From Candidatus Micrarchaeota archaeon CG1_02_49_24 (GTDB taxonomy: Archaea > Micrarchaeota > Micrarchaeia > Anstonellales > UBA8471), in the NCBI GenBank assembly GCA_001871535.1, contig MNVF01000038.1, positions 1-33,063 on the forward strand: a DNA stretch of 33,063 bases, read 5' to 3'. Positions 1,684-33,063 of the stretch are shown here, in pieces (within the stretch, counting starts at the first letter, position 1; each line of letters begins with the position of its first letter). The notes beneath the pieces were generated by a model, which had not been told where the DNA came from, ran no database searches, and saw only the letters and a list, made by a program, of their open reading frames with translations. The position numbers were made by a program, and so were the translations under genes.

Positions 1684-3249
1684 CTACAAAAACCTTGTCA
1701 AATCAACCTTCGGGAAAACCGCTTTCCCGAAGTTCTTGCCATTCGCCTTCAACGGGGCAGTGCAGTCAAACCCGCATTTTGCGGTGAAGCACGTTCCGGG
1801 CTCGGCGCTCGGGTCCAGGCTTGAGCCTTTTTCCCTGGGTTTCATCACAAGGCCAGCGTCTGCCTGGAAGCGCGTTGCCATTGCCCACTCGATATCAAGG
1901 GGGTTGTAGATGTCAATGTCCTTGTCAACTATGAAGACGTGCTTGCAGCTTTTATGGCCTTCGAATGCCGCGGCAACCGCCTTTTTCCCGTCGTCTTCCT
2001 GCCGCTTGTCAATTTTGACTATCGCGTGCAGCCAGGAGCAGCCGCCTGGATTGATGTTCACGTCGAGGCATTTGACACCGGCTTCCTCAACCTTTTTGAA
2101 AATCGTGGGCTCGCGCGGCATGCCCATAATGACCTTGTGCTCAAGCTTGCCGGGCAGCAATGCCTGCCATATCGCATCTTTTCTATGGGTTATTCTTTTT
2201 ATCGTGAGCACCGGCTCCTGCCTTGTTATGTCTGTCGTCTCGGTAAGGTCAACAAACGGCCCTTCTGGGGCTTTTTCGTCAAGCCTGACAGTGCCCTCAA
2301 GTACAAACTCGCAGTCTGCCGGAATCGTGGCGTCAAACGTTTTCGCCCTTACAACCTTCAGCGACTCGAGCGAGTTTGCTATCTCCAGTTCGTTCAGGCC
2401 GAAGTCTACTGAGGTTGCGGCAGCAATAAGCACGTTTGGCGCATTGCCGACGCAGACCGCAACATTGAGCTCCTCGTTCTTTTTCAGCAGCTGGTCAAAG
2501 TGCCTGTCTCTTACGACCCGTATTGAAAATTTGTTCTTCCCTATCTGCATTGCCCTATGGAAATCCACGTTCTGTATGCCATCCTTGTCCCTTGTTATGA
2601 AGACCCCGGAACTTATGTAATTGCCGCCGTCTCCTTCGCAGTGGAAGAGTATGGGCAACTTGTCCAGGTCTATTTCCCCAAACTCCACTTCCTGGCAGGG
2701 CGCGCTTTTCACTTCCTCTGGCTTTGTGGGGTGCTCTATTGCCCGGGTTATCTTGGGGATAAGGCCGCCAGCATGAATACTCCGAGGGCTGAAGCCCTCG
2801 GTTTCTGCTGGGTAAACCTGTTCTGGTAATGTCTGTTGGGCTTCAGGCGAGAACCCAGCAGAAACCGCATAGGTGGGTGCGCTTTTTCCCAGCACTAAAC
2901 TGCTGGGTTTCGAGATATTTCTGAGCGAGTGCTGCGCTTGGGGTTGCCGTATGGCAGCACCAACGCCCGGGCCCAAACACCTATCTGTGCTGGCTCGGGT
3001 CGCTCCGGAATATCTCGGCGCACCCTCTGAGTATTCATCAATGCCGAAATAGGCGGCAACCTGCCCCTTGGTGGCAAAGATGTTTCCTGCAACCCTGAAG
3101 CCCGACCCCGTTATTTTTTCAAAAAGCACAGGCCTTTCGCCAGACCCGTTCAGTATGGCCGAAGCCTCCAATTTTCTTGAAACTGACTTTTTCACCGTTG
3201 TAAGCCGGCCCTGCGCGTCCAGCTTTTCAAGATAGCTGCGAAAACTCAT
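1684..3249 (-). CDS. UbiD-family decarboxylase, probably anhydromevalonate phosphate decarboxylase. It carries a ~91-codon in-frame insertion.
   Basis: The UbiD fold is recognisable over the whole ORF (PVLFEKI..GNIF, SAPCQEV, GNYISSGVFIT, PEGPFVDLTE, GGCSWLHAIV). ATG at 3249 overlaps the ubiX stop as ATGA, whereas the track start at 3258 is GTG. Residues ~75-165 are foreign to the family. Confidence 0.85.
   Translation of the reverse strand: MSFRSYLEKLDAQGRLTTVKKSVSRKLEASAILNGSGERPVLFEKITGSGFRVAGNIFATKGQVAAYFGIDEYSEGAPRYSGATRASTDRCLGPGVGAAIRQPQAQHSLRNISKPSSLVLGKSAPTYAVSAGFSPEAQQTLPEQVYPAETEGFSPRSIHAGGLIPKITRAIEHPTKPEEVKSAPCQEVEFGEIDLDKLPILFHCEGDGGNYISSGVFITRDKDGIQNVDFHRAMQIGKNKFSIRVVRDRHFDQLLKKNEELNVAVCVGNAPNVLIAAATSVDFGLNELEIANSLESLKVVRAKTFDATIPADCEFVLEGTVRLDEKAPEGPFVDLTETTDITRQEPVLTIKRITHRKDAIWQALLPGKLEHKVIMGMPREPTIFKKVEEAGVKCLDVNINPGGCSWLHAIVKIDKRQEDDGKKAVAAAFEGHKSCKHVFIVDKDIDIYNPLDIEWAMATRFQADAGLVMKPREKGSSLDPSAEPGTCFTAKCGFDCTAPLKANGKNFGKAVFPKVDLTRFL
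2764..3036 (+). repeat. Composite hairpin insertion inside the UbiD ORF (antisense to the gene). It contains family-A copy 3.
   Basis: Nested and adjacent inverted repeats account for most of it (a handful of short linker runs are left over). These are ccgagggc-tgaa-gccctcgg (2782-2801), ttctgctgggt/acccagcagaa (2803-2813/2853-2863), gggtgcgc/gcgcaccc (2875-2882/3018-3025), cccagca-ctaaac-tgctggg (2888-2907) and the core at 2911-3017. Confidence 0.8.
2911..3017 (+). repeat. Family-A double-hairpin element, copy 3
   Basis: The layout is cgagatatttctgagcg-a-[gtgctgc N18 gcagcac]-caacg-[cccgggcc N18 ggctcggg]-t-cgctccggaatatctcg. The loops are 2936-2953 and 2974-2991, both 18 nt. Confidence 0.85.
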
Positions 3250-3800
3250 TTGCCCCACCGCCTGAACTTTTCATTTTTAATTCCAAACAAATCCATTATC
3301 TTTCCGGTAATAAACGATTCCAAATCCTTTATAGTTTTGGGTTTATAATAGAACGCCGGAGACAGGGGGAAAACAATTACGCCATAAACCGAAAGGTCGT
3401 ACATGTTCCTCAGGGTAGGTGGGCTTAAAGGCGTTTCCCTGACGCACACCACAAGCCTTTTCCCAGTCTTCAGCATGTTGTCCGCGGCCCTTGAAATCAA
3501 AGTCGAGCAATCCGCCCTCGCAATCTCTGAAATGGTTTTAATTGAAGCCGGAATTACAATCATTCCATCCACCAGAAAGGAAGAGCTTGCAATGGGCGCA
3601 GTCATATCATGATTTGAAAAAACATGTGAAGCCAATTTTTTAATACTCGCAACCGTGCAACTGGTTTCTTCCACAACCAATTTTTCCGCCCAGTCGCTTA
3701 CCACCAGGAAGGTTTCAACCTTTGCCTCTTTCAGGGCATTCAGCAGGTCAATGGCGTAATTCACGCCAGATGCGCCGCAGATGCCGACTATAAGCCTCAA
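3246..3800 (-). CDS. ubiX: Flavin prenyltransferase UbiX (makes prenyl-FMN for the UbiD-family enzyme)
   Basis: The 184-aa ORF has an N-terminal MRLIVGICGASG flavoprotein motif and overall UbiX/Pad1 likeness. It is the first gene of the minus-strand operon. Confidence 0.9.
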   Translation of the reverse strand: MRLIVGICGASGVNYAIDLLNALKEAKVETFLVVSDWAEKLVVEETSCTVASIKKLASHVFSNHDMTAPIASSSFLVDGMIVIPASIKTISEIARADCSTLISRAADNMLKTGKRLVVCVRETPLSPPTLRNMYDLSVYGVIVFPLSPAFYYKPKTIKDLESFITGKIMDLFGIKNEKFRRWGK

Positions 3801-6256: not shown

Positions 6257-7432
6257 ATGATTATTTTAGACCTAGACGTAAAGAGGCATGAAGCCAGGGT
6301 CAGCGACGCCTCCAGCGTTGGCCAGCTGGTCAATGGCTGCTATGGCGAAATGGTGAAAGGCACCATCCACCTGACCCCGGAGGAAGCGCTCTATCTCATG
6401 GACATACGCAATGCCAGGGCATTTGACGAAAAACTCAACGAATATTCGTTCAACCAGGTGGCAGGCCTCTTCAAGGTGCCTAAGCTTATCCCCCGCTACC
6501 TGACCTATAAGGATTGGAGGGACAGGGGCCTCATTGCCCGCAATTTCAGGGATTTGGCAAGGCTCAACGAGCGCTTCAACAAGGACGTGGTGGCAAACTA
6601 CCCGCACTCTGAATTCCAGCCAAAGCAGTTCTCAGTTGACGGCATGTTCTTCAAGGACAGCCTCATGAGCGTAATCGATGAGGAAAATGCAGGCCGGGAG
6701 CTTTACAACACATATTGGATAGGCCAGTACGGCACCTACAAGGCAGATGCCCGCGGCAAGCTCCTGAAGCTGGATGTATACGAAACCCTTTTCCTGCTCA
6801 GGCATTTCAATTTCAAGCTGGTGAATTCAGATGAAAAAGAGGTCCTGGCAACTGCCAGGGGCCACAACAAGGACTTCCCAAGCCTTTATGATGTGTATGA
6901 GGACTGGCGGCTCAGGAACTTCATACTCAAGACAGGGTTCAAATTCGGCACCCATTTCCGGGTCTATTTCCCTGGCGCCAGCCCGGCAAAAAGCGGCACA
7001 GACTGGATGCATTCCAAGCACGTGATACACGTGTTTCCAAGGAAGAGCAAGCTGCTCATATCCGAATGGGCGCGGGCAATCAGGGTGGCCCATTCAGTGA
7101 GAAAGACGTTCATACTTGCCATCCCAGGGGAAAAGGCAAAGGGCGAAAAGGAAGTCAGTGAGCTGGATTTCCTGCTCTATCACAGGAGAAAGGAGGGCAT
7201 TGAGACGCCGCGGGAGGGCAAGCCGAAATACCTAATGTTTTCGCTCTCTGAGGAAGAGTTCATAGGCGGTGCTGAGCTTGCCAATGCGATTGAATTCTGC
7301 AAGAAAGCCGGCCTTGGCCTGATGCTTGCCATTGCGGATAGGGAGACCAGCGTCACCTACTACCTTGTGAGAAGGATTGACCTGAAGGGAAGCAAATACG
7401 GATATTATGAAATTGGATGGTACCAGCCGTAA
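6257..7432 (+). CDS. endA: tRNA-splicing endonuclease, single-chain multi-unit form (resembles the three-unit epsilon-type described for ARMAN archaea)
   Basis: The central catalytic unit is GFKFGTHFRVY...HSKHVIHVF...AHSVRKTFILAI (Tyr/His/Lys). An N-terminal unit has LTPEEALYLM and YKDWRDRGLIAR. An extra C-terminal structural unit ends in LMLAIADRETSVTYYLVRR. At 391 aa it is roughly twice a homotetramer-type subunit. Confidence 0.85.
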   Translation: MIILDLDVKRHEARVSDASSVGQLVNGCYGEMVKGTIHLTPEEALYLMDIRNARAFDEKLNEYSFNQVAGLFKVPKLIPRYLTYKDWRDRGLIARNFRDLARLNERFNKDVVANYPHSEFQPKQFSVDGMFFKDSLMSVIDEENAGRELYNTYWIGQYGTYKADARGKLLKLDVYETLFLLRHFNFKLVNSDEKEVLATARGHNKDFPSLYDVYEDWRLRNFILKTGFKFGTHFRVYFPGASPAKSGTDWMHSKHVIHVFPRKSKLLISEWARAIRVAHSVRKTFILAIPGEKAKGEKEVSELDFLLYHRRKEGIETPREGKPKYLMFSLSEEEFIGGAELANAIEFCKKAGLGLMLAIADRETSVTYYLVRRIDLKGSKYGYYEIGWYQP

Positions 7433-7494
7433 TGGTCTCGGGTCTTGGATATCTGGACTCTGAACCCTGGACTCTGGACCCTGGATTGATGGGG
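7433..7494. repeat. Heptamer-like word array (ggtcttgg atatctgg actctga accctgg actctgg accctgg)
   Basis: The array starts directly after the endA stop (TAA 7430-7432). It contains ggactctggaccc at 7469-7481, which recurs at 7889-7901. Confidence 0.7.
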
Positions 7495-7869: not shown

Positions 7870-9072
7870 ATGAATCCATCAGGACTCAGGACTCTGGACC
7901 CAAGACCCGCTGGACCCAAGACCCTGGACCCTAGACTCGACGGCAAGCATATCTGCATCTGCATCACAGGCAGCGTCGCCTCTGTCAGGGCATTCGACTT
8001 GGCAAGGCTGTTGATTAAATTTGGCGCCAAAGTTACCTGCGTTGCATCATCTGAAGCATTGCGCTTTGTGGCAAAGGAGAGCCTTGAATGGGCAACCGGC
8101 AACCCGGTGATTGACAAAATCACCTATAAGTGCGAGCACCTTGAGCTGGCAAAGTGCGATGCAGTTGTAATTGCGCCTGCAAGCGCAAATACAATTTCAA
8201 AAATCGCCCTGGGCATCGCCGACACGCCGGTTACCCTTGTGGCACAGAGCGCGCTGACACAAACACCCGCCATAATTGCGCCTGCCATGCACAGGCTGCT
8301 GATGAACCCCATAATCAAGGAGAACCTGAAAAAACTGGAAAAACTGGAAAAGGTCACGGTGATTCCTTCGGTGAAAGCCGATGGAAAGGAGAAATTGGCT
8401 GATGTGGAGGAGATTGCGGATTATGCAATAAGGGCAGTTGCGACAAAGCGCCTGGAAGGAAAGAGGATTTTGATAGTGGGAGGTGCCTTCAGGGAATACA
8501 TTGATGACGTGAGGTTCATTTCAAACGGAAGCTCTGGCAGGTTTTCGGTTGCGCTTGCGAAAGAATGTTTTTACCAGGGGGCGGATGTGACATTGGTGCA
8601 TGGAAAAACTGAGGTTGCCGCGCCAAAATATGTTGAAACGATGGGGATTGAAACAACAACGGAATTGATTGGAAAGATTGAAGAATTTGCGAAAGGAAAA
8701 TGCATCATACTCTTCCCGGCAGCCCTTAATGATTTTTCAATTGTGAAAAAAAAGGACGGCAAATTTGACAGCACAAAAAGGCAACCCATTGAGCTGGCGC
8801 CATTGCCGAAGGCAATCAAAATCGCAAGAGAAGCGAACAGAACGGCGAAAATAATCGGGTTTAAGGCTGAGGTTAGTAGCAGTGTTAATGCAGAAAAAAT
8901 AAAACGATTGCTGGAAAATTGTGATTCTCTTGTTTGGAATGATATTGGGAAGCATGGGTTTGGCAGTGATGAGACTGAGATAATTATATTTGCCAAAAGC
9001 GGAAAGGAAATTGGAAAATTTGCCGGGATGAAAGATGAACTGGCAGAGAGAATAATCGATTTGGTTCAGTGA
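7870..9072 (+). CDS. coaBC: Bifunctional phosphopantothenoylcysteine decarboxylase / phosphopantothenate-cysteine ligase (CoaBC/Dfp)
   Basis: The flavoprotein domain shows ICITGSVASV and APASANTISKIALGIADT. The DFP domain shows ILIVGGAFREYIDDVRFISNGSSG. The only ATG upstream of the core is 7870, so the first ~24 codons are encoded by the word array. Confidence 0.85.
   Translation: MNPSGLRTLDPRPAGPKTLDPRLDGKHICICITGSVASVRAFDLARLLIKFGAKVTCVASSEALRFVAKESLEWATGNPVIDKITYKCEHLELAKCDAVVIAPASANTISKIALGIADTPVTLVAQSALTQTPAIIAPAMHRLLMNPIIKENLKKLEKLEKVTVIPSVKADGKEKLADVEEIADYAIRAVATKRLEGKRILIVGGAFREYIDDVRFISNGSSGRFSVALAKECFYQGADVTLVHGKTEVAAPKYVETMGIETTTELIGKIEEFAKGKCIILFPAALNDFSIVKKKDGKFDSTKRQPIELAPLPKAIKIAREANRTAKIIGFKAEVSSSVNAEKIKRLLENCDSLVWNDIGKHGFGSDETEIIIFAKSGKEIGKFAGMKDELAERIIDLVQ
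7879..7940. repeat. Heptamer word array (caggact caggact ctggacc caagacc ... ctggacc ctagact) overlapping the coaBC 5' end
   Basis: It has a visible 7-nt period and shares ggactctggaccc (7889-7901) with the array at 7433-7494. Confidence 0.7.
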
Positions 9073-10854: not shown

Positions 10855-11110
10855 GAAAATCCCTCTAACAGTTGCGGGTTCCGGGTTGCGAGTTTCGGGC
10901 ACTGAATACGTAACTCGGAACTCATCGACCCGAAGGGGAGAGCTATTCGCCGGCAGGCGATCAACAGCTATTGCTGTTGAGAATTTCTCCAACTGGAGAA
11001 ATGCCAGCAGACGAATTCAAAAACCCGAAACCCGAAACTCTTATCAGCTGCCAATTGGATTTCGCTTGATAGCGAAAAGCTCGCAACATAGAAGATGTCG
11101 ACCACCTTGC
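10855..11110. repeat. Tetraloop mini-hairpin array (family B) in the intergenic leader
   Basis: Hairpins seen are tcaacagc-tatt-gctgttga (10961-10980), atttctcc-aact-ggagaaat (10983-11002) and tttcgct-tgat-agcgaaa (~11061-11078). The words acccgaaac and gagtttcggg occur in inverted copies. Confidence 0.7.
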
Positions 11111-13204
11111 CTACGTTGCGATTACTTTTGCGAACTCGCAGGCGCTGAAATAAGTGTCATCGCCCTGGAGCGTGACCTCCTGGACATACACGTTGCTGTA
11201 GCTGGCAGCATTCCTGGTTGAGTATTTGAGCGAGACAATGGGCATATTGGCAAGCTGCAAGATGCAACTTGTGCCATTGAGCGTCTCATTGCCTACTGCG
11301 CAGGAGCTGCCTGAGTCATAGACGAGAAAAACCGTCTTGTTCCTGGCCACCAGGGATGCCTTTATGCTGCTGACACAGGCAAGCATGGGGTCTGAAAGAT
11401 GAGTGGTATCCACCCGCACGAGGGTGGAATTGCTGTTCTCCAGGGCCGCATAGAATGAGGAGAATGTGCCATTGTCAGCACCGCTGCCCACCAGCCAGTA
11501 GATGCCGCCGGAAAGCACGATGGCCCCGATTATGCCGGCTGCGAACAGCAGACCCCAGACCACATAGACGAACTTTTTGGCGAACCTCTTCCTGAAATAG
11601 ACAAGGCCGCCCAGGAAAATCAGCACTGCCACGGATATGAGCGCAAGGTCGAACACGCCGACCAGCACAGGCAAGCCTATGCGGATGGATGTTTCCCTGT
11701 CACCCAGGTTAATGCGCTCGTTGAACATCGAGGCTGCGCCGAGAATCGGGTAGGAGAGCTTTTCTGAAAGCGCAGATGGCGCATTAGCCAGGCTTCCTGA
11801 AGAGCGTTGGAGATAAACATCATAGCCTGCTGCAAGCTGCTTGTATTCCGCCTCCAGCACGCCATATTCCTCATTGGTAAGCGGAGGGGCGAATTCAGAG
11901 GATAGCTTGAAATATTTCCTTGAAAGATTCGCATATTCGGAAAGCAGGGCTGAATTATTTCCAACGCTCTGCCACTGGGCACGGAGGTCTTTCCCATAAA
12001 TTGATTTGTTAGCCAGGGAAACTTTTTCGTAGGGCACGGTAAGGTTCGCATAGGATTCGCTCATGAGATAGAGTGTGTCCTCAAGCTCGTCTATGTCCTG
12101 GGGGATTAGGGAATATTTGCCATTCTTCATTTTTGCATCTATGGTGGTCTTGATATTCAGGTAGTTCTCATAAATTCCTGCTAACGCCTCGTCGCTGACC
12201 ACATTCCGGGAATCTGCGGCAAGCCTTGTCAGGTTGCCGTATTTTGCCTCGAGCGCTGAGACCCGGCTTCCATAGAGGCCGGTGTAATGCTGCTTCTCCT
12301 TGAATTTGATTCTGCCCTCGCTGCCTGCAAGCAAGGCAGTTACCCGGGCATCCAAATCGGCAAGGCTGGCAGTTTTGTCAATGAGGAACTGCACCTGGCT
12401 GAGCGCGGCATTCACAGAGCTCGCATTGTTTGTGGGTGAGGGGCAAAAACCAATGCAATCAGAACAGGATTCGCCCAGGGCTGGCAGCCGCAGCGGCGTC
12501 TGGCGCACGCCGGCATCATATTGCTTTACCTTGCCCAGCCTGGCCTGGATATCAGTAAGCTGGCTGTTGACATTGTTGGGTGTCAATGTATCAAGGTCGG
12601 AAAAGATGCCCTTGATGTTGTCATCAAGGCCCTTTAGATTAGTGCTATAAGAGATAAAGGGCGCAACGAAGCCAGACGGGTCGCAACTGCCTGCACCATA
12701 GCGATTGCATATCATCTGCGCCACCACGAGGCATGTGGTCTGGTCAAGGCAGAATCCATCCGGGCTCATGCCTGTCTTAAGCTGGGTCCTGCAGACCTCC
12801 TCGGATTTGCCATAAGGCGTCTTGAAATTCCTGCTGTCGTTGTATGCATCTACGGTATCCCTAAGCTGCTGAAACTCAAGTTGGGAAGGATAATATTCGG
12901 ACAGGTAGCTCTGGCGCAGGATGGCACCCACAAGGGCAGTATCGTCCAGTTTATCATTGCCCCTGAGGACAAAGGTGTTCACGCCCCTGATGGAAACCAC
13001 CTGATAGGCGATGTTGTTATAGGTCACGCTGTCTGTGCGGATATCTGCTACACTCTCATTAGGGTAGAGATAGCTGGTATAGTCAAATGCAAATAAGGAT
13101 GCTGAAAGAAGCAAAACTGCAAACAATAGTGGCAAATACCTGGGATACCTGAGGGTCGCCTCTTGAATCAACCTGTTGGTCGATTGAATGTCCCTTTGGG
13201 ACAT
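11111..13204 (-). CDS. Large membrane protein with an N-terminal extracytoplasmic domain and C-terminal TM helices (hypothetical)
   Basis: It has a signal-like segment (YLPLLFAVLLLSASLFA), many N-x-S/T sequons and two C-terminal TM helices. The start was set at ATG 13204 because the track start at 13363 reads through the hairpin array. Start remains uncertain. Confidence 0.65.
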   Translation of the reverse strand: MSQRDIQSTNRLIQEATLRYPRYLPLLFAVLLLSASLFAFDYTSYLYPNESVADIRTDSVTYNNIAYQVVSIRGVNTFVLRGNDKLDDTALVGAILRQSYLSEYYPSQLEFQQLRDTVDAYNDSRNFKTPYGKSEEVCRTQLKTGMSPDGFCLDQTTCLVVAQMICNRYGAGSCDPSGFVAPFISYSTNLKGLDDNIKGIFSDLDTLTPNNVNSQLTDIQARLGKVKQYDAGVRQTPLRLPALGESCSDCIGFCPSPTNNASSVNAALSQVQFLIDKTASLADLDARVTALLAGSEGRIKFKEKQHYTGLYGSRVSALEAKYGNLTRLAADSRNVVSDEALAGIYENYLNIKTTIDAKMKNGKYSLIPQDIDELEDTLYLMSESYANLTVPYEKVSLANKSIYGKDLRAQWQSVGNNSALLSEYANLSRKYFKLSSEFAPPLTNEEYGVLEAEYKQLAAGYDVYLQRSSGSLANAPSALSEKLSYPILGAASMFNERINLGDRETSIRIGLPVLVGVFDLALISVAVLIFLGGLVYFRKRFAKKFVYVVWGLLFAAGIIGAIVLSGGIYWLVGSGADNGTFSSFYAALENSNSTLVRVDTTHLSDPMLACVSSIKASLVARNKTVFLVYDSGSSCAVGNETLNGTSCILQLANMPIVSLKYSTRNAASYSNVYVQEVTLQGDDTYFSACEFAKVIAT

Positions 13205-13262
13205 AGCTCGACGAACAAGGTTCGCCGATAGCTCAGCGACTATTGTCGCTGATGTGCACGCA
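13150..13262. repeat. Tetraloop mini-hairpin array (family B) overlapping the 5' end of the 11111..13204 gene
   Basis: The string is tcaacc-tgtt-ggtcga, then ttga-atgtccc-tttg-ggacat, then agc-tcgacgaac-aagg-ttcgccga (imperfect), then agc-tcagcgac-tatt-gtcgctga. The same ttgaat and agc junction words occur at 16519-16573 and 21097-21145. Confidence 0.7.
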
Positions 13263-13363
13263 AATTGGTTCATAAGTGGTTTATTGAGAGAAATATTTAT
13301 AAAGAGGAATGAAAGAAATGGAAAAACGTGGGAATTAGGAGCTGCACAACAAAAGGCTGACAA

Positions 13364-16419: not shown

Positions 16420-16447
16420 TTAAACCTTAAACTTTAGACCTTAAACC
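16420..16447. repeat. Four tandem heptamers: ttaaacc ttaaact ttagacc ttaaacc
   Basis: Read directly from the sequence. It abuts the duplicated 3' end of the Cdc48-like gene. Confidence 0.7.
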
Positions 16448-16450
16448 TAT

Positions 16451-16614
16451 TTCCTCTCCCCGTAAGTCTTCATGTTGATGAAACTGAAGAGAGCTTCGCT
16501 GCTCACGCATGCATGCTCTCATTCTGTTTGAATGCACCTGCGGATGCATAGCTCGGCGACTGTTGTCACCGATTCCCCAAGCCCCTTCACTTCCTCTCCC
16601 CGTAAGTCTTCATG
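16451..16614. repeat. 24-nt perfect direct repeat (16451-16474 and 16591-16614) flanking a 116-nt hairpin-rich insertion at the 3' end of the Cdc48-like gene
   Basis: ttcctctccccgtaagtcttcatg occurs twice, 140 nt apart. Both copies encode ...MKTYGERK followed by a stop (TGA at 16587, TAG at 16447). Confidence 0.8.
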
Positions 16615-19600
16615 AATGCATAATAAGCCTGCAACATCTCTAAGGAAATGGATGGCCGCCTGCCCTTTATCACTGCAAATATCTCTGCCATTGAGAGATG
16701 CGGTTCAATGCCCCTCAGCTTTTTCTTCACCATCTCAAGCTTGACCCCCTGGCAGATTGAGGTGATGTCTGCCGCCGAGAAGCCCTCAGTCAGCCTGCTG
16801 AGCTCATCATAATCAATGACTGCCCCTGCCGCCACACCCTCAAGGTTTCTCTGGAAGATGTTGGCCCGTGCTTTCAGGTCAGGCGGTGGGATGAACACTA
16901 TCTTGTCAAACCTGCCGGGCCTCATGAGCGCAGGGTCGAGAATCTCCGGCTTGTTGGTGGCGCCTATGAGAAGCACGTTCTTGAGCTCCCGGACCCCGTC
17001 AAGCTCGGAGAGCAGCTGGCCGACAAGGCCGCCATCTGAGAGCTCACGGGAGGGCGCCACAGTCTCAATCTCGTCTATGAATATGATGGCAGGCGCCTGC
17101 TCCTTGGCGCGGTTGAATGTTTCTTTCAGCACCCGGATGCTGTTGGCATAGCCCTTTTTGAGCAGCTCGGCACCTGAGAGAAACTGGAAGGTGGCCTTCA
17201 ACTCATTGGCGGCAGCCTTGACTATGAATGTTTTGCCGCACCCTGGAGGTCCGAATAGGAGCATGCCCTTGTAGGGCTTGACCTTGTACTGCTCCATCAA
17301 GTCCTCGTGGAGAAGCGGCAGCTCGATGGCATCCAGGAGAATGGTCTTCACCTCATCCAGGCCGACCACGTCTGCCCATCTCACAGCATCCTCTTTTTTC
17401 TTTTCCACCTGGCGGCCGACTCTCCTTTCGAAATCAAGCCGGAACTGCTCGTATTCCTCGAGCTGCTCCAGGCCGACGCTGGGCCTGACGTTGTCCAGCA
17501 CCCGCAGGAGGTGCTCCATGGTGATGGGCAGGATTTTGTTCTGCTTTGACGCGTCGGCGGCTGCAAACCGCGCGGCTTCCCTGCACACATTGGCTATATC
17601 AGCGCCCGAGAACCTGTCGGTTTTCTTTGCCAGGAGGCCAAGGTCGATATTTGCCGTTGGAAGCTTGCTCAGCTGCACCTTGAAAATGTCCTTTCTTCCT
17701 TCGGGGTCAGGCAGCTTCATATAGATGATTTTGTCGAACCTGCCGGGCCTGAGAAGGGCGGCATCAAGCATATTGGGGACGTTGGTGGTGCCTATGACCA
17801 TCACGGGCTTGGTTGCGCCCTTGTAGCCGTCAAGCTCTGTGAGAAAAACGGACATTACCCTGGGCGCCACGTCGTCTGCGCTGTAAAGCTCGCGCTTTTT
17901 CCCAATGGAATCAATCTCGTCAAAGAAAAGGATGGAGGGCGCGTTTTCCCTGGCGACCTTGAAAATTTCCGCGACATTTTTCTCGCTGTTGTGGGCAAAG
18001 ATGCCGCCGAACCCGCCAGCGAAATTCTGGCAGGGCTCAACTGAGATATCGTAAACGAATTCCTCATCGGCAACCTGCCTTATTTCCTCAACCCTGTCCC
18101 AATAGATGTCGCCATTGACCACTTTTTCAAGGCTGGTGGATGATGCACCAAGCTTTGTATGTTTCATCAGAAGAATTTGCCTGCCTATGGTTGCCGAGCC
18201 TGCCTCAGAATATTTCTTAAGGTTCCGGAAGACCCATTCCTTCAGCTCGCCGGAGAGCGGTATCTGCACATCGCGGTGCCAGGAACCGGCCTCAAGCGCG
18301 CATTCATACCGCTTGTTCCGCATATCATCCAGAAATCCTATCTGCCCAAAACCCCGGAAGGGTTCGCCGGTCAGGAAAATGCGATACATAAGGGCGCCGC
18401 TCCATTCCATTTTTTCACGCACAGTGGCAACGATGCCGAAATACAATAATAGATATAGAAGCTGGCTGGCAAGGGTTTTGCTGGCAGTGCAGGCCTCGAC
18501 AGTGCCAATTCCTTTCTGATTTTCATAAACCGTGCCATCGCCAGAGAAATAGCCCCTGAGAAAGGCGGCAAGCCTCAGCCTGTCAAGCGAGAACACGGCA
18601 ACTGGCGCCTTCTTCCTCTCAGCACCATGCTCAAGCCCAAGGAAATGCCTCATGAAAACATAAAGCACCCTACCTGGGATATATATGTCGCGGCCCCTGC
18701 CGACGCCACGAAAGTTTTCAGTTTTGGAGTTTCCAGTCTGGGAGTTTTGACTCTCTTCCCTTTCTTCTCCCGAGGGTCTTCTTTCTGGGAAAGAAGAGGC
18801 TCTTTTCTTTTCATAGATGATTATTTTGCCGAAAAGCTTTGCGCATAGTTCGGCAATCTTTCCGAGCTGGCAGTCAGAGGTGCTTACCCTGACCGTGTCT
18901 TCCCGAGTGTAGCTGCCCTCTGCAACCCACAGGCCGAGAAAGAGCGCCAGCTCTCCATCAAGCTTGATTATGCCCGGCAGGCCTTTGCAGGCGCCCTTTC
19001 CTGTGCAGACCAGGATTTTACTGCTGTCATATGAAATGCCGGTGCGCTCCATGAGTGCAATGAACCTGCCGGCCGGCAGTGAAATTTCCTTTTCCCTTGA
19101 CAGAATGTATTTCAAGTATTTGGTATTTTTTAGGCCGAGAAGGATATGTGTTTCGTTTGCGCCGATTTTTTCAACAGCAAGTTTTACGTAATCTCTGACT
19201 CGAGTTACCCTAAGGCCATAATCCGCATGTTTCAGGCTGCCGAGAAAATCAAGCTGCCCAACAGGTGCACTGGGAAACTCGACTCTGGAGGGGATTGCGA
19301 TGTATGAAAAACCCGCCTTGAGTTTTGAGGTTTCAATGCTCTTCACTGAGCTGCCGTCTATAGTGAATAGGGAATGATAACCGGTAACGCGAATTCTGCG
19401 GCCGCTCCTCGTGCGCACTTCGTAAATGGGGGATGTGCATTTGTGTTTTATGTGGCCGGCGATTTCGGCAAACACGGCTTTCCCTTTTTCGTCGAAGCTC
19501 AGAACTTTGGCATCCCTCCTTTGCTCAACAATTTCTCCAATCTTTGCAAGCTTTACCGCACCGTTTTCCATTATCATGATTTCCTCATCGTATGGCAGGC

Positions 19601-20912
19601 TTTCGCCGTACCATTGAGATAAAAGCTCTGAAGTTTTCACATTGTAGAAGCCATAGCTCATCTCCTTTGAGAGAGCGCGCATCAGCATGGTTTTGCCTGT
19701 TCCGGGCGGGCCGAAAAGAAGCACGCCGCTGGGCGGCTTTATGCCGTAGGTGAAGCTCAATTCCTTGTGAAGGAGCGGTGTGATGATTGCCTCGCGCAAC
19801 TCTGCCTTCACGTCATTGTAGTTGCCCACATCATCAAGGGATTTTTCAGCCGTTGACTCTGCCATGTCCTGGACGCCGAACTTGCCGAACTTCTTTGTCT
19901 TCCGCCTGCGCTCAATCAGGCGCTCCCTGCTAAGGTCAACACCGCAGAAGTCAAGCAGGGCCACAATGGCAATCGAGATTACTATATATATAACAGAAAC
20001 CGCAGAGAACATGAACGGCACGCCAAATGCGCTCAGCAAAAGATTGGCCGCAGGCACTCCTAAGAGGGAGAGCGCACCCACGGTCTGCTTCCAATTGCTC
20101 TTTATATTGCCAGGCAGCCAGCCTGCAAGGAACAGGATTGCCCCCCAAAGAAAAATGTGGAGAAGGCCTGAGTCGGCAATGAACAGCTTAAGCATATTGT
20201 CAGCAATTTTCCCCAGCGATGGGGTAATCTGCTTCAATATTATGTCATAGGAGAAAATTGAAACCACAGATGCGGCTGCCTTGGATGGGAGTTCCAGCAG
20301 GCCCACCTCTTCCCTGATGTCATGCTGGAGCGCATCAATCTTCGGGGTGAACTGGCCCAGGTTTGTGATAGGCATGAAGGCGCTGTTCTGCACTATCCAG
20401 AGCGAGGACAGGAGAAGGATTAAACAGACAGCCGGGATGGAAATCACAATACTCCGCTGGGAGCCGGTGCGGAAAGCCCCGAGCACCATGAGCAACGGCA
20501 CAAACCCGGAAAGCAGCGAAAATGGCAATGGCGCAAACGGCGCGCACACGATTATTTCAAGGAATGCAATGACATCCCAGTCTTCATGCATCTGGAATAG
20601 GACAAGGGAGATAATTAGCATAAACGGCCATACGAATAGCGGCGCCTGATAGGAGAGGGCAGGAATTGCGAATATTATGCCCATGATTATGCCAACCTGG
20701 GGAAACCTGTAGGCAGCCAGGCCGCAGGCGAGCGCAAGCAAAAATGAGATGTAAATAGGATAGAACTGGAAAAGCACGAGAAGATAGAGCGCGCCCAGGA
20801 AAATCAGCACAGCATTGCCGAGCTCCTTGTTCTCCTGAAGGGATTGTAGCGTTGCCCTGACCTTCTGCTCGGACATGGTTGCGGATTTCAGTTGTTGTGT
20901 TGAAGCGCTCAC
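16587..20912 (-). CDS. Membrane-anchored double-AAA+ ATPase (Cdc48/VCP-like D1+D2) interrupted by an intein
   Basis: About 330 N-terminal residues form multiple TM helices. D1 has Walker A GPPGTGKT and Walker B ILFFDEIDS. D2 has GPPGCGKT and IIFIDEIET. SRH-like and arginine-finger regions follow each domain. Confidence 0.85.
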   Translation of the reverse strand: MSASTQQLKSATMSEQKVRATLQSLQENKELGNAVLIFLGALYLLVLFQFYPIYISFLLALACGLAAYRFPQVGIIMGIIFAIPALSYQAPLFVWPFMLIISLVLFQMHEDWDVIAFLEIIVCAPFAPLPFSLLSGFVPLLMVLGAFRTGSQRSIVISIPAVCLILLLSSLWIVQNSAFMPITNLGQFTPKIDALQHDIREEVGLLELPSKAAASVVSIFSYDIILKQITPSLGKIADNMLKLFIADSGLLHIFLWGAILFLAGWLPGNIKSNWKQTVGALSLLGVPAANLLLSAFGVPFMFSAVSVIYIVISIAIVALLDFCGVDLSRERLIERRRKTKKFGKFGVQDMAESTAEKSLDDVGNYNDVKAELREAIITPLLHKELSFTYGIKPPSGVLLFGPPGTGKTMLMRALSKEMSYGFYNVKTSELLSQWYGESLPYDEEIMIMENGAVKLAKIGEIVEQRRDAKVLSFDEKGKAVFAEIAGHIKHKCTSPIYEVRTRSGRRIRVTGYHSLFTIDGSSVKSIETSKLKAGFSYIAIPSRVEFPSAPVGQLDFLGSLKHADYGLRVTRVRDYVKLAVEKIGANETHILLGLKNTKYLKYILSREKEISLPAGRFIALMERTGISYDSSKILVCTGKGACKGLPGIIKLDGELALFLGLWVAEGSYTREDTVRVSTSDCQLGKIAELCAKLFGKIIIYEKKRASSFPERRPSGEEREESQNSQTGNSKTENFRGVGRGRDIYIPGRVLYVFMRHFLGLEHGAERKKAPVAVFSLDRLRLAAFLRGYFSGDGTVYENQKGIGTVEACTASKTLASQLLYLLLYFGIVATVREKMEWSGALMYRIFLTGEPFRGFGQIGFLDDMRNKRYECALEAGSWHRDVQIPLSGELKEWVFRNLKKYSEAGSATIGRQILLMKHTKLGASSTSLEKVVNGDIYWDRVEEIRQVADEEFVYDISVEPCQNFAGGFGGIFAHNSEKNVAEIFKVARENAPSILFFDEIDSIGKKRELYSADDVAPRVMSVFLTELDGYKGATKPVMVIGTTNVPNMLDAALLRPGRFDKIIYMKLPDPEGRKDIFKVQLSKLPTANIDLGLLAKKTDRFSGADIANVCREAARFAAADASKQNKILPITMEHLLRVLDNVRPSVGLEQLEEYEQFRLDFERRVGRQVEKKKEDAVRWADVVGLDEVKTILLDAIELPLLHEDLMEQYKVKPYKGMLLFGPPGCGKTFIVKAAANELKATFQFLSGAELLKKGYANSIRVLKETFNRAKEQAPAIIFIDEIETVAPSRELSDGGLVGQLLSELDGVRELKNVLLIGATNKPEILDPALMRPGRFDKIVFIPPPDLKARANIFQRNLEGVAAGAVIDYDELSRLTEGFSAADITSICQGVKLEMVKKKLRGIEPHLSMAEIFAVIKGRRPSISLEMLQAYYAFMKTYGERK
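17988..19601 (-). mobile_element. 538-aa intein with a LAGLIDADG homing-endonuclease domain, inserted in AAA+ D1 between Walker A and Walker B
   Basis: The host junction is WYGE|S...FAHN|SEKNV, which restores the canonical GESEKNV. Block B is RVTGYHSLF. The two LAGLIDADG motifs are LALFLGLWVAEGS and LAAFLRGYFSGDGT. The C-terminal block is VYDISVEP..NFAGG..IFAHN followed by Ser+1. Confidence 0.85.
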
Positions 20913-20959: not shown

Positions 20960-21290
20960 GGACTAGATTCACAGGTATCAGATTTTACGAAGAGCCCATC
21001 GAGCAGACTTTGTCTGTTTGAGCTATCGCGCAACAGCACGATTCAATCGGCGGCAGCAGTCGGCGAGATTTTCACCCGCAGGTGAAAAGCCAGCAGGCAA
21101 TCGGCGGCAGCAGTCGCCGAGCTATGCACCATCTGGTGCATTCAACTGTCAGCAAGGCTGACAGTACACAGATTGAGCCTGTTTGAATCGACCTGTTGGT
21201 TGATCAGATTTTCCGAAGAGCCTCTCTCGCTGATGCGAGAGACCCTGCACAATGTGCAGGGTATGAAGGCTCATTCGGAAAATCTGATAA
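20960..21290. repeat. Hairpin-dense divergent intergenic region (families B and C)
   Basis: Hairpins seen are cagac-ttt-gtctg (21004-21016), ttttcacc-cgca-ggtgaaaa (21069-21088), tgcacc-atct-ggtgca (21125-21140), ctgtcag-caagg-ctgacag (21146-21164) and tcgacc-tgtt-ggttga (21188-21203). The direct repeat caatcggcggcagcagtcg recurs 55 nt apart. Confidence 0.75.
21203..21281 (+). repeat. 79-nt perfect repeat, copy A (family-C three-way-junction element)
   Basis: It is identical to 32919-32997. The fold is cagattttccgaagagcc-[tctctcgc tgat gcgagaga]-[ccctgcac aatg tgcaggg]-tatgaa-ggctcattcggaaaatctg. The closing stem extends to 21287 in this copy. Confidence 0.9.
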
Positions 21291-21467
21291 TATAGATAAC
21301 ATAACCCCACGTAACTATTTGCACATCCAATTTAAATTTTGCACCCCAGTTGTACAACCATGCAGTTCCTTGCATATTCACTCAGCAGCCTTCCCTTTCT
21401 TTATCCCCTCCAGCAATCATCGCGCAGCAGCGCCACCACAAGCTTCTACCTGGATGACGCCACCAAG

Positions 21468-22613
21468 ATGGCAATCCTTATCATAGTTTTCTCAGCCGGA
21501 TTCATAGCCCTCCTCTACCTCATGAAAAAAACCAGCGCGAAAAAGACGAAATATCTCACCAGCGTAGACACCCAGAGGCTGCCGGGCGAAGGCGCCCATG
21601 TGGGCCGAATCGCAGAGCAGAGCTTGAGTGCCTACCTGCCCTTTGACAAGCTCACCATGCATTCCCTGGTGGCAGGCGCCACTGGTTCAGGCAAGACCGT
21701 TGCTGCCCAGGTAGTTGCCGAGGAGGCGCTCCTGAACAAGGTGAGCATACTCGTGTTTGACCCAACGGCGCAATGGACAGGCTTCCTCAGGAAGCAGGCT
21801 ATAAGCGATATGCTGAAACGGTATGCGCGGTTTGGCCTGCAAAAGAGCGATGCGCGTGCATTCGACGGCAACATCTACCTAGTGGAAAATTCCGAAACGT
21901 TCCAGATAAACGTGAAAAAATACATGATGCCCGGAGAGATAAACGTATTCGTGCTGAACAGGCTGAAGCCCCAGGAGATGGAAATCATTGTTACCCGCGT
22001 GATTAAGGCGGTATTCGAGGCGAACCTGGAGGAATACAGGGGGCTGCGGCTGCTCATTGTGTTTGACGAGGTGCACAGGCTGCTTCCGAAGTTCGGGGGG
22101 ACTGGTGAAGGGTTTAAGCAGATAGAACGCGCGGTCCGCGAGTTCAGGAAATGGGGCGTTGGGATGGTGCTTGTCTCCCAGGTGCTGAGCGATTTTGTTG
22201 GTGAAATCAAGGCGAACATTGGCACTGAGATGCAGTTCCGGACGAAATACGAGCAGGATTTGGAGCGCATACGCTACAAATTCGGCCCGGAATCATTGCT
22301 GGGAGTGGTGAAGGCAAATGTCGGCACCGGGCTGATGCACAATTCGGAATACAACAACGGCAATCCCTATTTCGTGGAATTCCGGCCGCTCTTGCACAAT
22401 GTGGTGCGATTGAGCGACAAGGAGCTTGACACTTATAAAAGGTATAATGACAGGATTGTGGCGTTGGAGCAGAGAATTGAGAAAATGAAGGAAGATGGGA
22501 ATGATGTATTTGATTTGAACCTTGAGCTGAACCTGGCAAAAGATAAAATGAAAAAGGGCGCGTTCAACATTGTGGATATTTACCTTGAGAGCCTGGAAGG
22601 GAAGACGGCTTGA
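21468..22613 (+). CDS. Membrane-anchored P-loop NTPase of the HerA/FtsK/VirB4-like (DUF87-type) kind
   Basis: It has an N-terminal TM (MAILIIVFSAGFIALLYL), Walker A (VAGATGSGKT) and Walker B (LLIVFDEVHRL). The start was moved from TTG 21339 to ATG 21468. Confidence 0.65.
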   Translation: MAILIIVFSAGFIALLYLMKKTSAKKTKYLTSVDTQRLPGEGAHVGRIAEQSLSAYLPFDKLTMHSLVAGATGSGKTVAAQVVAEEALLNKVSILVFDPTAQWTGFLRKQAISDMLKRYARFGLQKSDARAFDGNIYLVENSETFQINVKKYMMPGEINVFVLNRLKPQEMEIIVTRVIKAVFEANLEEYRGLRLLIVFDEVHRLLPKFGGTGEGFKQIERAVREFRKWGVGMVLVSQVLSDFVGEIKANIGTEMQFRTKYEQDLERIRYKFGPESLLGVVKANVGTGLMHNSEYNNGNPYFVEFRPLLHNVVRLSDKELDTYKRYNDRIVALEQRIEKMKEDGNDVFDLNLELNLAKDKMKKGAFNIVDIYLESLEGKTA

Positions 22614-23100: not shown

Positions 23101-23106
23101 TTTTTA

Positions 23107-31582: not shown

Positions 31583-32833
31583 TTACAGCTGCGCTTTCTC
31601 CCTTGTCAGATAAAGATAGGCTCCAATTGCCACAGCTGCCAGCACCACCACACCGCCCAGGACAATAGGCAGGGGCATGCCCACGCTTCCTAAATTGCCC
31701 CCTATAATCCCTGGGCTGGTCGAATTCGTATCAAGAATTACCAGCACGGCACTGCCAGCCACCGAATTCCTGTTCCCGGCATTGTCTATCGCATAGACGA
31801 TGTAGCTCAGTGAATCTGCCAGCCCGACATCCAGCTCTGCCTCATAGATAGAATTCGAATCCATGTACATCGTTTCCCTGCCGTGCCTGGAGCCTGACAC
31901 GTAGTCTACATAAACATCGCTGAGCTCGCCCATGCCACTTCCGTAGATACCAGACTCTGCCACCATGGCGCGCACCCGGGCATATCTATCGCCCAGGCGC
32001 TCCACGATTATGTTGCTAATCTCAGGTGGGTGCATATCAAAAAAAATGATAATGTTTGTGCCTTCGCTGAGGTCAGCCCTGGCAGTCTGTTTGAACCCCT
32101 TGGACTGGGCAGTAAACACTGCTGTTGGCCCTACATAATCCTTGAATTTCGCCATACCCAGCTCGTCCGCCTCATCGATGCGGTCGAGGAGGGTGACATA
32201 GCCCTTGACGGGCTCTCCGGTGTCATCCATGAGCTTGACAATCGGGTTATAAACAGGGAAAATAATATCTTCAGAGGTATCGCCCCTGACGGTGATGGAC
32301 TTGACCTGCTGGCCGTTTGAAAAATCAGCTATGATCGTCGTATCGCCAGGGGGCACAAGGAATGCCACATCTCCGTTGGCGTTGGCATAGCCAGTGAAAT
32401 TGCCCGCAGAGACCCTGCTCAAAAGCGGCGCCCTGCGCTGGTCGGTAACCTTTACCTTGAGGAGGTAGAGCTCTGTCTGAATTATTATGGAGGATGGGTG
32501 TTGGTAAACTTCAATCTCTCTCCTTGCACCCTTGTAGCCATAGAGAACCCGGATGGTCACTGTTTTGTCAACTTCGCCCTCCACAATCTCCACATTCTCA
32601 ATGGTGAAACTTGCCATGCCAAGGGCGTCAGATAGCTGGGAAATAGTCTGGAGCCCCCTGAGCGAATCGCGCTGATAGGTCACGAAGACTGTGGCATTCT
32701 GCACAGGCCTGCCAAGCATGTCCACCACCTGCACGGATACATAGTCATTGAAGGTGGAGAAAGCTGCTGGCACTAGGAGAAGCATGAATGCAATTGCAAA
32801 CACTAACATTGGCAAATATCTAGCTATATGCAT
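31583..32833 (-). CDS. Hypothetical surface protein (beta-rich, CarboxypepD_reg-like N-terminal module, C-terminal TM anchor)
   Basis: The signal-like N-terminus is LPMLVFAIAFMLLLVPAAFS. VQVVDMLGRPVQNATVFV resembles Ig-like regulatory domains. The C-terminal anchor is VVVLAAVAIGAYLYL. Confidence 0.6.
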   Translation of the reverse strand: MHIARYLPMLVFAIAFMLLLVPAAFSTFNDYVSVQVVDMLGRPVQNATVFVTYQRDSLRGLQTISQLSDALGMASFTIENVEIVEGEVDKTVTIRVLYGYKGARREIEVYQHPSSIIIQTELYLLKVKVTDQRRAPLLSRVSAGNFTGYANANGDVAFLVPPGDTTIIADFSNGQQVKSITVRGDTSEDIIFPVYNPIVKLMDDTGEPVKGYVTLLDRIDEADELGMAKFKDYVGPTAVFTAQSKGFKQTARADLSEGTNIIIFFDMHPPEISNIIVERLGDRYARVRAMVAESGIYGSGMGELSDVYVDYVSGSRHGRETMYMDSNSIYEAELDVGLADSLSYIVYAIDNAGNRNSVAGSAVLVILDTNSTSPGIIGGNLGSVGMPLPIVLGGVVVLAAVAIGAYLYLTREKAQL

Positions 32834-32918: not shown

Positions 32919-32997
32919 ATCAGATTTTCCGAAGAGCCTCTCTCGCTGATGCGAGAGACCCTGCACAATGTGCAGGGTATGAAGGCTCATTCGGAAA
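32919..32997 (+). repeat. 79-nt perfect repeat, copy B (family-C element)
   Basis: It is identical to 21203-21281 and lies upstream of the 31583..32833 gene. Confidence 0.9.
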
Positions 32998-33063
32998 TCC
33001 AGTTTTCGCTTGATAGCGAAAATCTCAAGGACTGTTGTCCTTGAATTCTCGTGAAGTTGGCGC
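32998..33063. repeat. Further tetraloop hairpins at the window edge
   Basis: These are ttttcgct-tgat-agcgaaaa and aaggac-tgtt-gtcctt. The first is nearly the same hairpin as at ~11061-11078. Confidence 0.6.

Follow-up and report, generated by a model that had tools for sequence, protein, structure and literature searches.

The REP/BIME repeats of Proteobacteria, which are mobilised by RAYT (TnpA-REP), are short G+C-rich palindromes of high copy number and mostly extragenic position that form mosaic clusters with other conserved short motifs, carry strand-specific features and vary between strains. In published surveys, the REP-associated Y1 classes occur in Bacteria only (PMC6006769). Rickettsia palindromic elements (RPEs), which are single bacterial elements of ~100 to 150 bp, enter protein-coding genes in frame and do not destroy them (PMC10969869). 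MITE and BOX elements are non-autonomous and multi-copy and have strong predicted folding; pneumococcal BOX elements, boxA-(boxB)n-boxC, combine fixed ends with a variable number of internal units. The archaeal MITEs of Sulfolobus, Halobacterium and Haloquadratum are deletion derivatives of insertion sequences (PMC10969869). Finally, IS200/IS605 ends and integron attC sites conserve the structure of one strand, not its sequence, and tolerate imperfections on that strand only. The genomes of DPANN archaea such as Micrarchaeota are small and streamlined and, to our knowledge, not known for repeat proliferation.

Here, we describe arrays of tetraloop mini-hairpins (A to E) in a window of 33,063 nt, the whole stretch of DNA analysed, from Candidatus Micrarchaeota archaeon CG1_02_49_24. 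We found no description of such elements in DPANN archaea in the literature. Their closest counterparts, by analogy, are REP/BIME, MITE/BOX and Rickettsia palindromic elements. The arrays share with REP/BIME the palindromic, high-copy, mosaic, strand-specific and strain-variable character listed above, and with MITE/BOX the non-autonomous, multi-copy character and strong predicted folding; one sub-element (21203-21288) has 20-nt inverted ends, and the composites resemble pneumococcal BOX in having fixed ends and variable internal unit numbers. The likeness to RPEs is a functional analogy, with no sequence relationship expected: stop-free insertion in frame, here in the N-terminal region of a surface-protein gene (11111..13273) and in an RFC large-subunit gene. 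On balance, we consider it likely that the arrays are lineage-specific, non-coding, modular palindromic repeats, that is, selfish DNA of a MITE-, REP/BIME- or RPE-like kind, and that they have multiplied within the genome of this uncultivated groundwater archaeon. They differ from REP/BIME in being archaeal, and from RPEs in being built of 45- or 54-nt units of mini-hairpins, mostly intergenic and in long arrays. The archaeal MITEs described so far, unlike the elements here, are not tetraloop-hairpin arrays. The features of the arrays are as follows.

10855..11110, no strand assigned: array A, a mosaic of hairpin modules from the stop of the 11111..13273 gene to the ATG of the next gene at 10854; hairpins at 10947-10960, 10961-10980, 10983-11002 and 11060-11077, with flanking heptamer runs at 10871-10899 and 11021-11038.
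13160..13254, minus strand: array B, 95 nt in place of 5 nt in a relative (net +90 nt, or 30 codons); hairpins at 13233-13252, 13208-13228, 13188-13204 and 13168-13183 on the minus strand, with linkers GAGCTAT and ATTCAA.
16474..16590, minus strand: array C, a 117-nt element that starts with GTGAAGGGGCTTGGGGAATCG and ends with TTTCATCAAC and includes the 45-nt unit 16528-16573.
16591..16613, minus strand: first copy of a direct repeat, ATGAAGACTTACGGGGAGAGGAA, in which the AAA ATPase gene has its final codons (MKTYGERK).
16451..16473, minus strand: second copy of the direct repeat, the identical 23 nt, followed by the original TAG.
20977..21288, no strand assigned: array D, a composite lying between two divergent promoters; the covariance model places units at 21046-21088 and 21100-21145, and two more hairpins lie at 21145-21165 and 21183-21204.
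21203-21288: sub-element of array D, 86 nt, with the 20-nt inverted ends (ATCAGATTTTCCGAAGAGCC ... GGCTCATTCGGAAAATCTGAT) around two hairpins.
32919..33044, no strand assigned: array E, which precedes the TATA box of gene 31583..32833.

Each basic module consists of a 16- to 20-nt hairpin whose loop reads ANCA on one strand and is closed by a C-G pair. Modules are linked head to tail via short fixed words, with CGAGCTAT, ATTCAA, GAGATTT/GAGAATT and AAAGCC as conserved junction words, in support of the modular hairpin family with conserved junction words proposed in an earlier note on this DNA. Two or three modules make up units of 45 or 54 nt, which are assembled into arrays and larger composites, some with inverted ends. 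The mixed set of 4-nt loops listed in that note gave way to a stricter rule, as the loops are not arbitrary: among 500 hairpins, AACA/TGTT was counted 92 times, ATCA/TGAT 44, AGCA/TGCT 24 and CGCA/TGCG 25, a bias absent at control loci. Compared to REP/BIME, these hairpins are shorter, carry the fixed C-ANCA-G loop and run mostly head to tail instead of strictly alternating. In addition, they lack the GTAG/CGTC tag found at the hairpin foot of REP/BIME: GTAG/CTAC is found at 2 of 129 hairpins and CGTC at 16, by reading of the sequences mostly inside stems, and upstream of the hairpins CGAG(C/A)T is the word that is conserved. A CRISPR array was rejected, as the hairpins abut via junction words of 2 to 7 nt and have no spacers; riboswitch and terminator readings were ruled out on anatomy.

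Perfect hairpins (stem of at least 5 bp, loop of 3 to 5 nt) were counted and compared to 300 dinucleotide-preserving shuffles. Four were found in array A (10855-11110; 0.70 expected), three in array B (13163-13262; 0.28 expected) and six in array D (20960-21300; 1.10 expected), counts reached by none of the shuffles, and four in array E (32900-33063; 0.65 expected), a count reached by two. Hairpin density, which the earlier note had itself named as a point on which its claim could fail, is therefore above shuffled expectation in these arrays. The coding region 11111-13162 and three other intergenic stretches showed no excess, being at or below shuffled expectation. Folding z-scores are -4.6 for array A, -5.1 for array B and -11.4 for array D; a separate fold of array B (13160..13254, minus strand) gave -48.1 kcal/mol (z -5.7).

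A covariance model of the two-hairpin unit recovered all three places where that unit had first been pointed out, namely 21100-21145 on the plus strand (68.8 bits) and 16528-16573 and 13184-13229 on the minus strand (66.5 and 54.6 bits), together with a fourth copy at 21046-21088 on the plus strand (31.4 bits). The top score in 333 kb of unrelated control DNA was 24.9 bits. The second helix of the unit is paired in 100% of 11 distinct copies, with three of its seven pairs covarying (UA/AU/GC/CG), and the covariation score is 0.276 versus 0.104 for shuffled data (0/500 shuffles as high). The proposal that stem changes are mostly compensatory thus holds.

Array B lies at the start of the surface-protein gene, where three features are relevant.

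13294..13303, minus strand: TATA box TTTATAAATA, beginning 30 nt before the ATG at 13273.
13271..13273, minus strand: likely true start ATG (MNQFAC...), kept in the relative and located at the predicted transcription start.
13202..13204, minus strand: ATG in the hairpin 13188-13204, within the inserted repeat and missing from the relative.

The TATA box is identical between the window and relatives L113/L114, and an all-A/T octamer is likewise found 24 to 32 nt upstream of many other starts in the window. The orthologue in these relatives, at 90% protein identity, retains both the TATA box and an ATG matching 13273 but has no array B. This points to array B as a net 90-nt in-frame, stop-free insertion, in a two-way comparison whose polarity is judged from the extra 90 nt being repeat. 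The insert spans codons 7 to 38, between the ATG at 13273 and the signal-anchor segment. Judging from promoter geometry and conservation, the gene likely starts at the ATG at 13273; since this ATG coincides with the predicted transcription start, the mRNA would be leaderless. Previous start calls for this gene and for its orthologue were both wrong, each in a different way.

The best ATG chosen earlier, 13204-13202 on the minus strand, indeed sits in the 5' arm of the 7-bp hairpin 13188-13204, and the accompanying reservation that the real start may lie elsewhere was well placed. That ATG is a by-product of the repeat and probably not the start. The idea attached to it, that the arrays are cis-regulatory RNA leaders whose 5' UTR hairpins include one, 13188-13204, that sequesters the start codon and so exerts translational control over the surface-protein gene, could draw on the stability of this hairpin and on the position of array B downstream of the promoter, from which it would be transcribed with the gene. 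However, the orthologue has neither array B nor the ATG at 13204, and this ATG has no TATA box at a suitable distance and no Shine-Dalgarno motif, a motif that the internal genes starting at 10854 (GAGG) and 16159 (GAGGT) do have. The other arrays are also not confined to intergenic leaders: D and E precede the TATA boxes of neighbouring genes, A lies between cistrons, C is at a gene 3' end, and an RFC large-subunit gene (L132) carries an in-frame module inside its coding sequence. Moreover, dozens of unrelated loci carry identical modules, and an Rfam search gave no match at the gathering score or even at E<=1. We regard control by start-codon sequestration as highly improbable.

The selfish-repeat reading is consistent with how the arrays vary from site to site. 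At array A, relative L113 keeps the flanks, and the middle is a different mosaic of 464 nt; in the more distant relative L146, the site holds a spacer of only 37 nt. Array C provides the TGA that terminates the AAA ATPase gene, whose C-terminal YGER[KR] is kept across Micrarchaeota homologues, and the direct repeats around array C are a duplicated target flanking the element. Elements of the array C type, with compensatory stem changes, are also present at other loci (L132, L128 and L139), and the array D composite is repeated elsewhere as well (L124/L120 and L133). Array E contains an exact 79-nt copy of 21203-21281, 11.7 kb apart, followed by hairpins at 33003-33022 and 33025-33044. The end word of the 21203-21288 sub-element recurs at 20977 and 32919; most arrays are without such ends. 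The nearest other AAA ATPase homologue has only 52% identity and offers no comparison for arrays C and D as insertions. Target duplications comprise the 23 nt at C, an imperfect one of ~15 nt in L132, at most GCGAC (~5 nt) or none at B, and none at D. In contrast to MITEs, there is no consistent target-site duplication here, and the available loci showed no parent insertion sequence sharing these ends.

Between near-identical strains, whole units come and go. Strain L135 has an additional 45-nt unit at the array D locus, array C contigs in two runs skip exactly 45 nt (16528-16572), array D contigs skip 54 nt (21044-21097), and one locus has four copies of the 45-nt unit, three of them in tandem. 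The whole-unit indels are bounded by short repeats (TGA/TGA). These indels and tandem units, the 23-nt duplication at array C, which resembles a template-switch scar, and the perfect stems, which intrastrand templating predicts, would also suit a by-product of replication or repair, in which palindromes at fragile intergenic sites arise and multiply by slippage and by hairpin-primed or template-switch synthesis; such a process needs no transposition, and no transposase was found in the window or in ~190 kb. Against it stand the larger composites, near-identical over ~330 nt at unrelated loci, and the exact 79-nt copy in array E. In addition, one set of junction words and ANCA loops is used genome-wide, which points to copying from a common source and not to independent origin. 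We consider a local origin by replication or repair alone very unlikely.

Copy number and dispersal were assessed in sequencing data. Logan word depth rises from ~20 in the flanks of array A to 223-360 over the array (10-18x), and from ~7 in the flanks of array D to 710-975 (>100x); contigs break at the arrays and continue into other modules. In an exact-pattern scan of metagenome contigs, 21 of 29 loci were true, and the free N12 formed a palindromic G-NNNN-loop-NNNN-C at all 21, with seven different stem-loop sequences. The covariance model gave ~100 matches at E<1e-5 within ~190 kb, and 128 distinct ANCA-type hairpin contexts were counted in 166 kb of non-redundant DNA. Two distant Micrarchaeota loci and a relative at 78% eRF1 identity yielded no covariance-model matches and no loop bias, and viral contigs held no family members and only non-palindromic chance matches. 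When the 16-mer junction word CAGTCGSCGAGCTATG was queried against genome contigs, the matches listed included only single chance matches in unrelated bacteria; loci from the CAGTCGSCGAGCTATG scan were reused as negative controls for the covariance model. The best named matches of eRF1 and the AAA ATPase are Candidatus Micrarchaeota. The repeat family is confined to one groundwater lineage of these DPANN archaea.

The two strands of the modules are not equivalent. The ANCA strand contains 49 stop trinucleotides, versus 145.5 +/- 9.7 in shuffled sequences and 131 on the opposite strand, a depletion of about three-fold. As this strand is nearly stop-free and all unit lengths observed are divisible by three, sense copies are tolerable within genes. 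Mismatches also favour the ANCA strand (G.T over A.C, 20:5), and array C folds at -45.8 kcal/mol on its minus strand versus -34.7 on the plus strand, 11 kcal/mol better on the ANCA strand. Strand-specific folding was nevertheless dropped as a general rule, as the energy difference is not significant across 66 unique units. Likewise, a first count in which the ANCA strand was sense between co-directional genes (15:1) was lost under stricter gene calls, because the stop-poor ANCA strand yields spurious ORFs. Module orientation is mixed inside single arrays and relative to neighbouring genes.

Modules are present in metatranscriptome contigs, one of which (453-553 nt) has a depth of 16-117 versus ~4 for the S-layer mRNA; these RNA libraries are unstranded contigs that may include DNA. 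Given these contigs and the G.T preference, the modules may have a role at the RNA level. Both findings would also fit a structured nucleic acid that is useful to the host and kept by selection, for instance ANCA-tetraloop platforms for proteins, protection of RNA ends, mRNA stabilisers or insulators, or parts of an abundant ncRNA, as would the conserved loop and closing pair, the covarying stems and the folding preference of array C. Mixed orientation, the lack of a general strand difference in folding energy, modules within coding sequence, the complete turnover of content between relatives at 90% protein identity and the whole-unit changes between strains argue the other way, and we consider host utility an unlikely explanation.

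In the selfish-repeat reading, copies are placed at new chromosomal sites, as shown by orthologous sites that are filled in one genome and empty in another and by the recurrence of identical composites at loci otherwise unrelated. Arrays then grow and shrink by whole units, as seen between the near-identical strains, presumably through slippage at the repeated junction words or unequal exchange between them. Stems stay perfectly paired while their sequence differs, and loops and junctions are strand-specific; some enzyme may thus recognise the folded single strand, either as DNA while replication or transposition takes place or possibly in the form of RNA. Sense-oriented copies can be tolerated inside genes, of which two cases were seen. 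IS200/IS605 ends and attC sites offer a possible model of such recognition by analogy only, and no Y1 transposase, TnpB or integrase was seen in the available DNA. No transposase domain was found in the window, a regex search for the HUH...Y (HUH-Y1) motif gave 0 matches in ~190 kb (~0.2 Mb of genome examined), a Pfam search of 100 ORFs returned no transposase family among the 25 most-matched of 131 families, and a tRNA/tmRNA search found nothing relevant. No RAYT was found in ~190 kb, and the modules also differ from REP/BIME in their abundance in divergent promoter regions.

A bolder extension, which we put forward tentatively and think rather unlikely, is a previously undescribed archaeal mobilisation system. 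Here, a hairpin-specific enzyme, either a RAYT counterpart or unrelated, would copy C-ANCA-G units that evolved to be codon-phased (45/54 nt) and stop-free on one strand. Such units could then add peptides to the proteins of a DPANN symbiont with a reduced genome, among them surface and replication proteins, and so supply variation in both proteins and regulation.

The hundreds of hairpin modules break metagenome assemblies in this lineage, and, as they differ between strains and reach into coding sequence, they are a practical problem for binning and gene calling. The repeat family also gives a view on the persistence of selfish DNA in reduced genomes. If a dedicated enzyme exists, structure-specific mobilisation of single-stranded DNA of the REP/RAYT type would extend to Archaea. 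The stop-free units, with observed lengths divisible by three, would add an independent second example of 'selfish DNA in proteins' of the Rickettsia type.

The window is archaeal chromosomal DNA with a G+C content of ~50%, and groundwater and aquifer metagenomes contain its sequence nearly word for word. Its genes include those for eRF1, a tRNA-splicing endonuclease, CoaBC, PheRS, an intein-containing AAA ATPase, and an S-layer-like protein. For both eRF1 and the ATPase, the closest named homologues come from Candidatus Micrarchaeota, at only 50 to 54% identity, and eRF1 has one further relative at 78% identity. In its length, the endonuclease is reminiscent of the three-unit enzyme known from ARMAN-2. 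A tRNA search found no tRNA genes in the window, and Rfam gave no match above noise anywhere in it. The ATPase gene (16587-20912, minus strand) has an intein bearing a LAGLIDADG endonuclease; at a related metagenome locus (L143, 3020-8152), GyrA likewise has LAGLIDADG and intein-splicing domains, the latter in two stretches. A small minus-strand ORF with a ribbon-helix-helix match (22580-23131) contains three copies of ~90 to 93 nt, 92 to 94% identical (22806-23099), which yield a 30-residue protein repeat. The endonuclease and five runs of abutting mini-hairpins, arrays A to E, are located as follows.

6257-7432, plus strand, tRNA-splicing endonuclease, 391 residues, with N- and C-terminal endonuclease domains
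10855-11110, array A, abutting mini-hairpins
13160-13254, array B, abutting mini-hairpins
16474-16590, array C, abutting mini-hairpins
20977-21288, array D, abutting mini-hairpins
32919-33044, array E, abutting mini-hairpins

In arrays A, B, D, and E, perfect-hairpin counts are reached by none or almost none of 300 dinucleotide shuffles, so that the hairpin density claimed in the earlier note does exceed shuffled expectation there; no excess was found in the other intergenic stretches or the coding region tested. Folding z-scores equal -4.6, -5.1, and -11.4 for A, B, and D. The covariance search proposed in that note was run on the window and ~190 kb of family loci. The model of the two-hairpin unit recovered all three copies described previously, plus a fourth, with window matches of 31 to 69 bits; in 333 kb of control DNA, no match scored above 24.9 bits. 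Stem changes are indeed compensatory, as the second helix is paired in 11 of 11 distinct copies and three pairs show up to four Watson-Crick forms.

Modules are read here on the strand bearing the 4-nt loop ANCA. Among 500 perfect 4-nt-loop hairpins from the ~190 kb of family loci, the loops are strongly biased, with AACA/TGTT (92), ATCA/TGAT (44), CGCA/TGCG (25), and AGCA/TGCT (24), and a C-G pair closes 62 of 81 distinct hairpins. The junction words on this strand are CGAGCTAT, ATTCAA, GAGATTT/GAGAATT/GAGATAT, and AAAGCC-ANCA-GGC. Two hairpins and their junctions make up a 45-nt unit, present in four copies at one locus (three of them tandem), and three hairpins make up a 54-nt unit. Metagenome contigs were scanned with the pattern TCGNCGAGCTATG-N12-CATTCAA, giving 29 loci. 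In all 21 that are family members, the free N12 is palindromic (G-NNNN-loop-NNNN-C), and its stem-loop takes seven different sequences; the other eight were rejected as chance matches in other organisms, with a non-palindromic N12. A second class of intergenic repeats, short tandem heptamers (TCTGGAC, GTTGCGG/AAACCCG, TTAAACC, GTCTAAG, and GGTCTTA), frequently borders hairpin arrays and varies between relatives (window 7452-7485, 7879-7936, 10871-10899, 11021-11038, 16420-16448, and 31494-31522; L113, from a relative with 90% protein identity, 2960-3190).

Comparison between loci reveals that copies occupy new sites and that arrays vary by whole units. In the 90% relative (L113/L114), the flanks of array A are the same but the 464-nt mosaic between them is an entirely different one; a more distant relative has 37 nt between the two orthologous genes and no hairpin array. 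The array D composite (~330 nt) also occurs, with different flanks, in metagenome loci L124/L120 and L133, and 79 nt of it recur without change at 32919. In a near-identical strain (L135), the array D locus is longer by one 45-nt unit, and population contigs show an exact 45-nt skip in array C and a 54-nt skip in array D. Word depth in the Logan contig resource rises 10- to 18-fold over array A and >100-fold over array D, and contigs break at both arrays and run into other modules. Run X14 is a small data set from 2019, labeled with one organism and comprising 1.9 Mb of contigs; array D modules (21057-21247) reach a depth of 5,000 to 85,000 in it, the flanking genes are absent, and one contig corresponds to the L133 locus. 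Two distant Micrarchaeota loci showed neither loop bias nor a covariance-model match, and viral contigs held no family members.

Array C starts with GTGAAGGGGCTTGGGGAATCG, ends with TTTCATCAAC, and is bordered by a 23-nt direct repeat that codes for the genuine, conserved C terminus of the ATPase, MKTYGERK. The array brings a new stop codon, TGA; the former one, TAG, stands after the second repeat copy. Its head word was found at four loci. A copy of this element type at metagenome locus L132 has its own, imperfect flanking repeat and an internal stem of GACGGC/GCCGTC versus GAGAGC/GCTCTC in array C.

Array B lies near the 5' end of the surface-protein gene (minus strand), whose product has only two database relatives, namely itself, called from ATG 13273, and the 90% homologue. 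At the DNA level, this relative retains CTCTTTATAAATATTTCTCTCAATAAACC and ATGAACC(A/C)ATTTGCGTGCA, followed directly by GCGACC(T/C)TCAGGTATCCCAG. At the array site, the window has 95 nt versus 5 nt in the relative, a net gain of 90 nt, or 30 stop-free codons. ATG 13204, previously proposed as the best start, is present solely within this insert, and neither it nor TTG 13171 is preceded by a TATA box or a Shine-Dalgarno motif, the latter being present at internal genes of the window. A TATA box begins 30 nt upstream of ATG 13273. Many other starts (3249, 3890, 6257, 7870, 20912, 21360, 24290, and 32833) have an all-A/T octamer 24 to 32 nt upstream, which points to leaderless mRNAs. Because the relative keeps the 13273 region, the TATA spacing fits, and the downstream candidates lack motifs, we infer from conservation and promoter geometry that the gene spans 11111..13273, in line with the suggestion that the real start lies elsewhere. 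Array B would then code for residues 7 to 38, preceded by MNQFAC and followed by the signal-anchor segment RYPRYLPLLFAVLLL. Gene callers picked differing, probably wrong, starts for this gene (L113 593-2746; window 11111-13363): the start called for the relative's protein lies upstream of the TATA box, and the longest ORF in the window begins at TTG 13363.

Sense copies persist in ORFs. At L132, an ORF matching RFC subunit 1 (1946-3253; 1sxj_A, E 2e-18) carries a module at ~2066-2108, with GAGCTATGCGCCAACAGGCGCATTCAA in frame directly before the Walker A motif of this large-subunit homologue; intergenic copies elsewhere have the same 27-mer. At another metagenome locus, an ORF (L138, 9152-9859) appears to read ~55 codons into an array before its stop, which suggests that an insertion shifted the original stop codon. 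On the ANCA strand, 91 distinct intergenic hairpin segments contain 49 stop trinucleotides versus 145.5 +/- 9.7 after shuffling, and 131 on the opposite strand. All insert and unit lengths seen (45, 54, 90, and 117 nt) are divisible by three, on the basis of few independent events.

Mismatches on the ANCA strand favor G.T over A.C by 20:5, the cases not being independent, and in array C this strand gives the more stable fold, by 11 kcal/mol; among 66 unique units, the two strands do not differ significantly in folding energy. Blocks occur in both orientations within arrays, regardless of flanking-gene direction. An early 15:1 sense bias was rejected as an artefact, because the stop-poor strand yields spurious ORFs. 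Module-built contigs are found in three aquifer metatranscriptomes, which are unstranded and may include carried-over DNA. One abundant contig (453 to 553 nt) reaches a depth of 16 to 117 versus ~4 for the S-layer mRNA. Its depths were 117, 27.6, and 15.8 in RNA runs X25 to X27; it is made up in part of array modules and the head word GGGGAATCG, with counterparts at L120 2932-2959 and 3058-3084.

Neither the window nor 100 related-locus ORFs showed a transposase (best 25 of 131 Pfam families matched; ~0.2 Mb covered), and a motif search of ~190 kb found no HUH-Y1 motif. The family differs from REP elements in lacking their conserved tag (GTAG at only 2 of 129 hairpins), and from MITEs in that target-site duplications are not fixed. 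According to published surveys, REP-associated Y1 transposases occur in Bacteria only (PMC6006769), and the archaeal MITEs reviewed so far are from Sulfolobus, Halobacterium, Haloquadratum, and Desulfurococcus (PMC10969869). We found no description of such repeats in the literature on Micrarchaeota or DPANN. The recognised form may be a single-strand hairpin, and arrays could be resized by slippage or unequal exchange. This hairpin family behaves like REP/BIME, MITE/BOX, and RPE elements.
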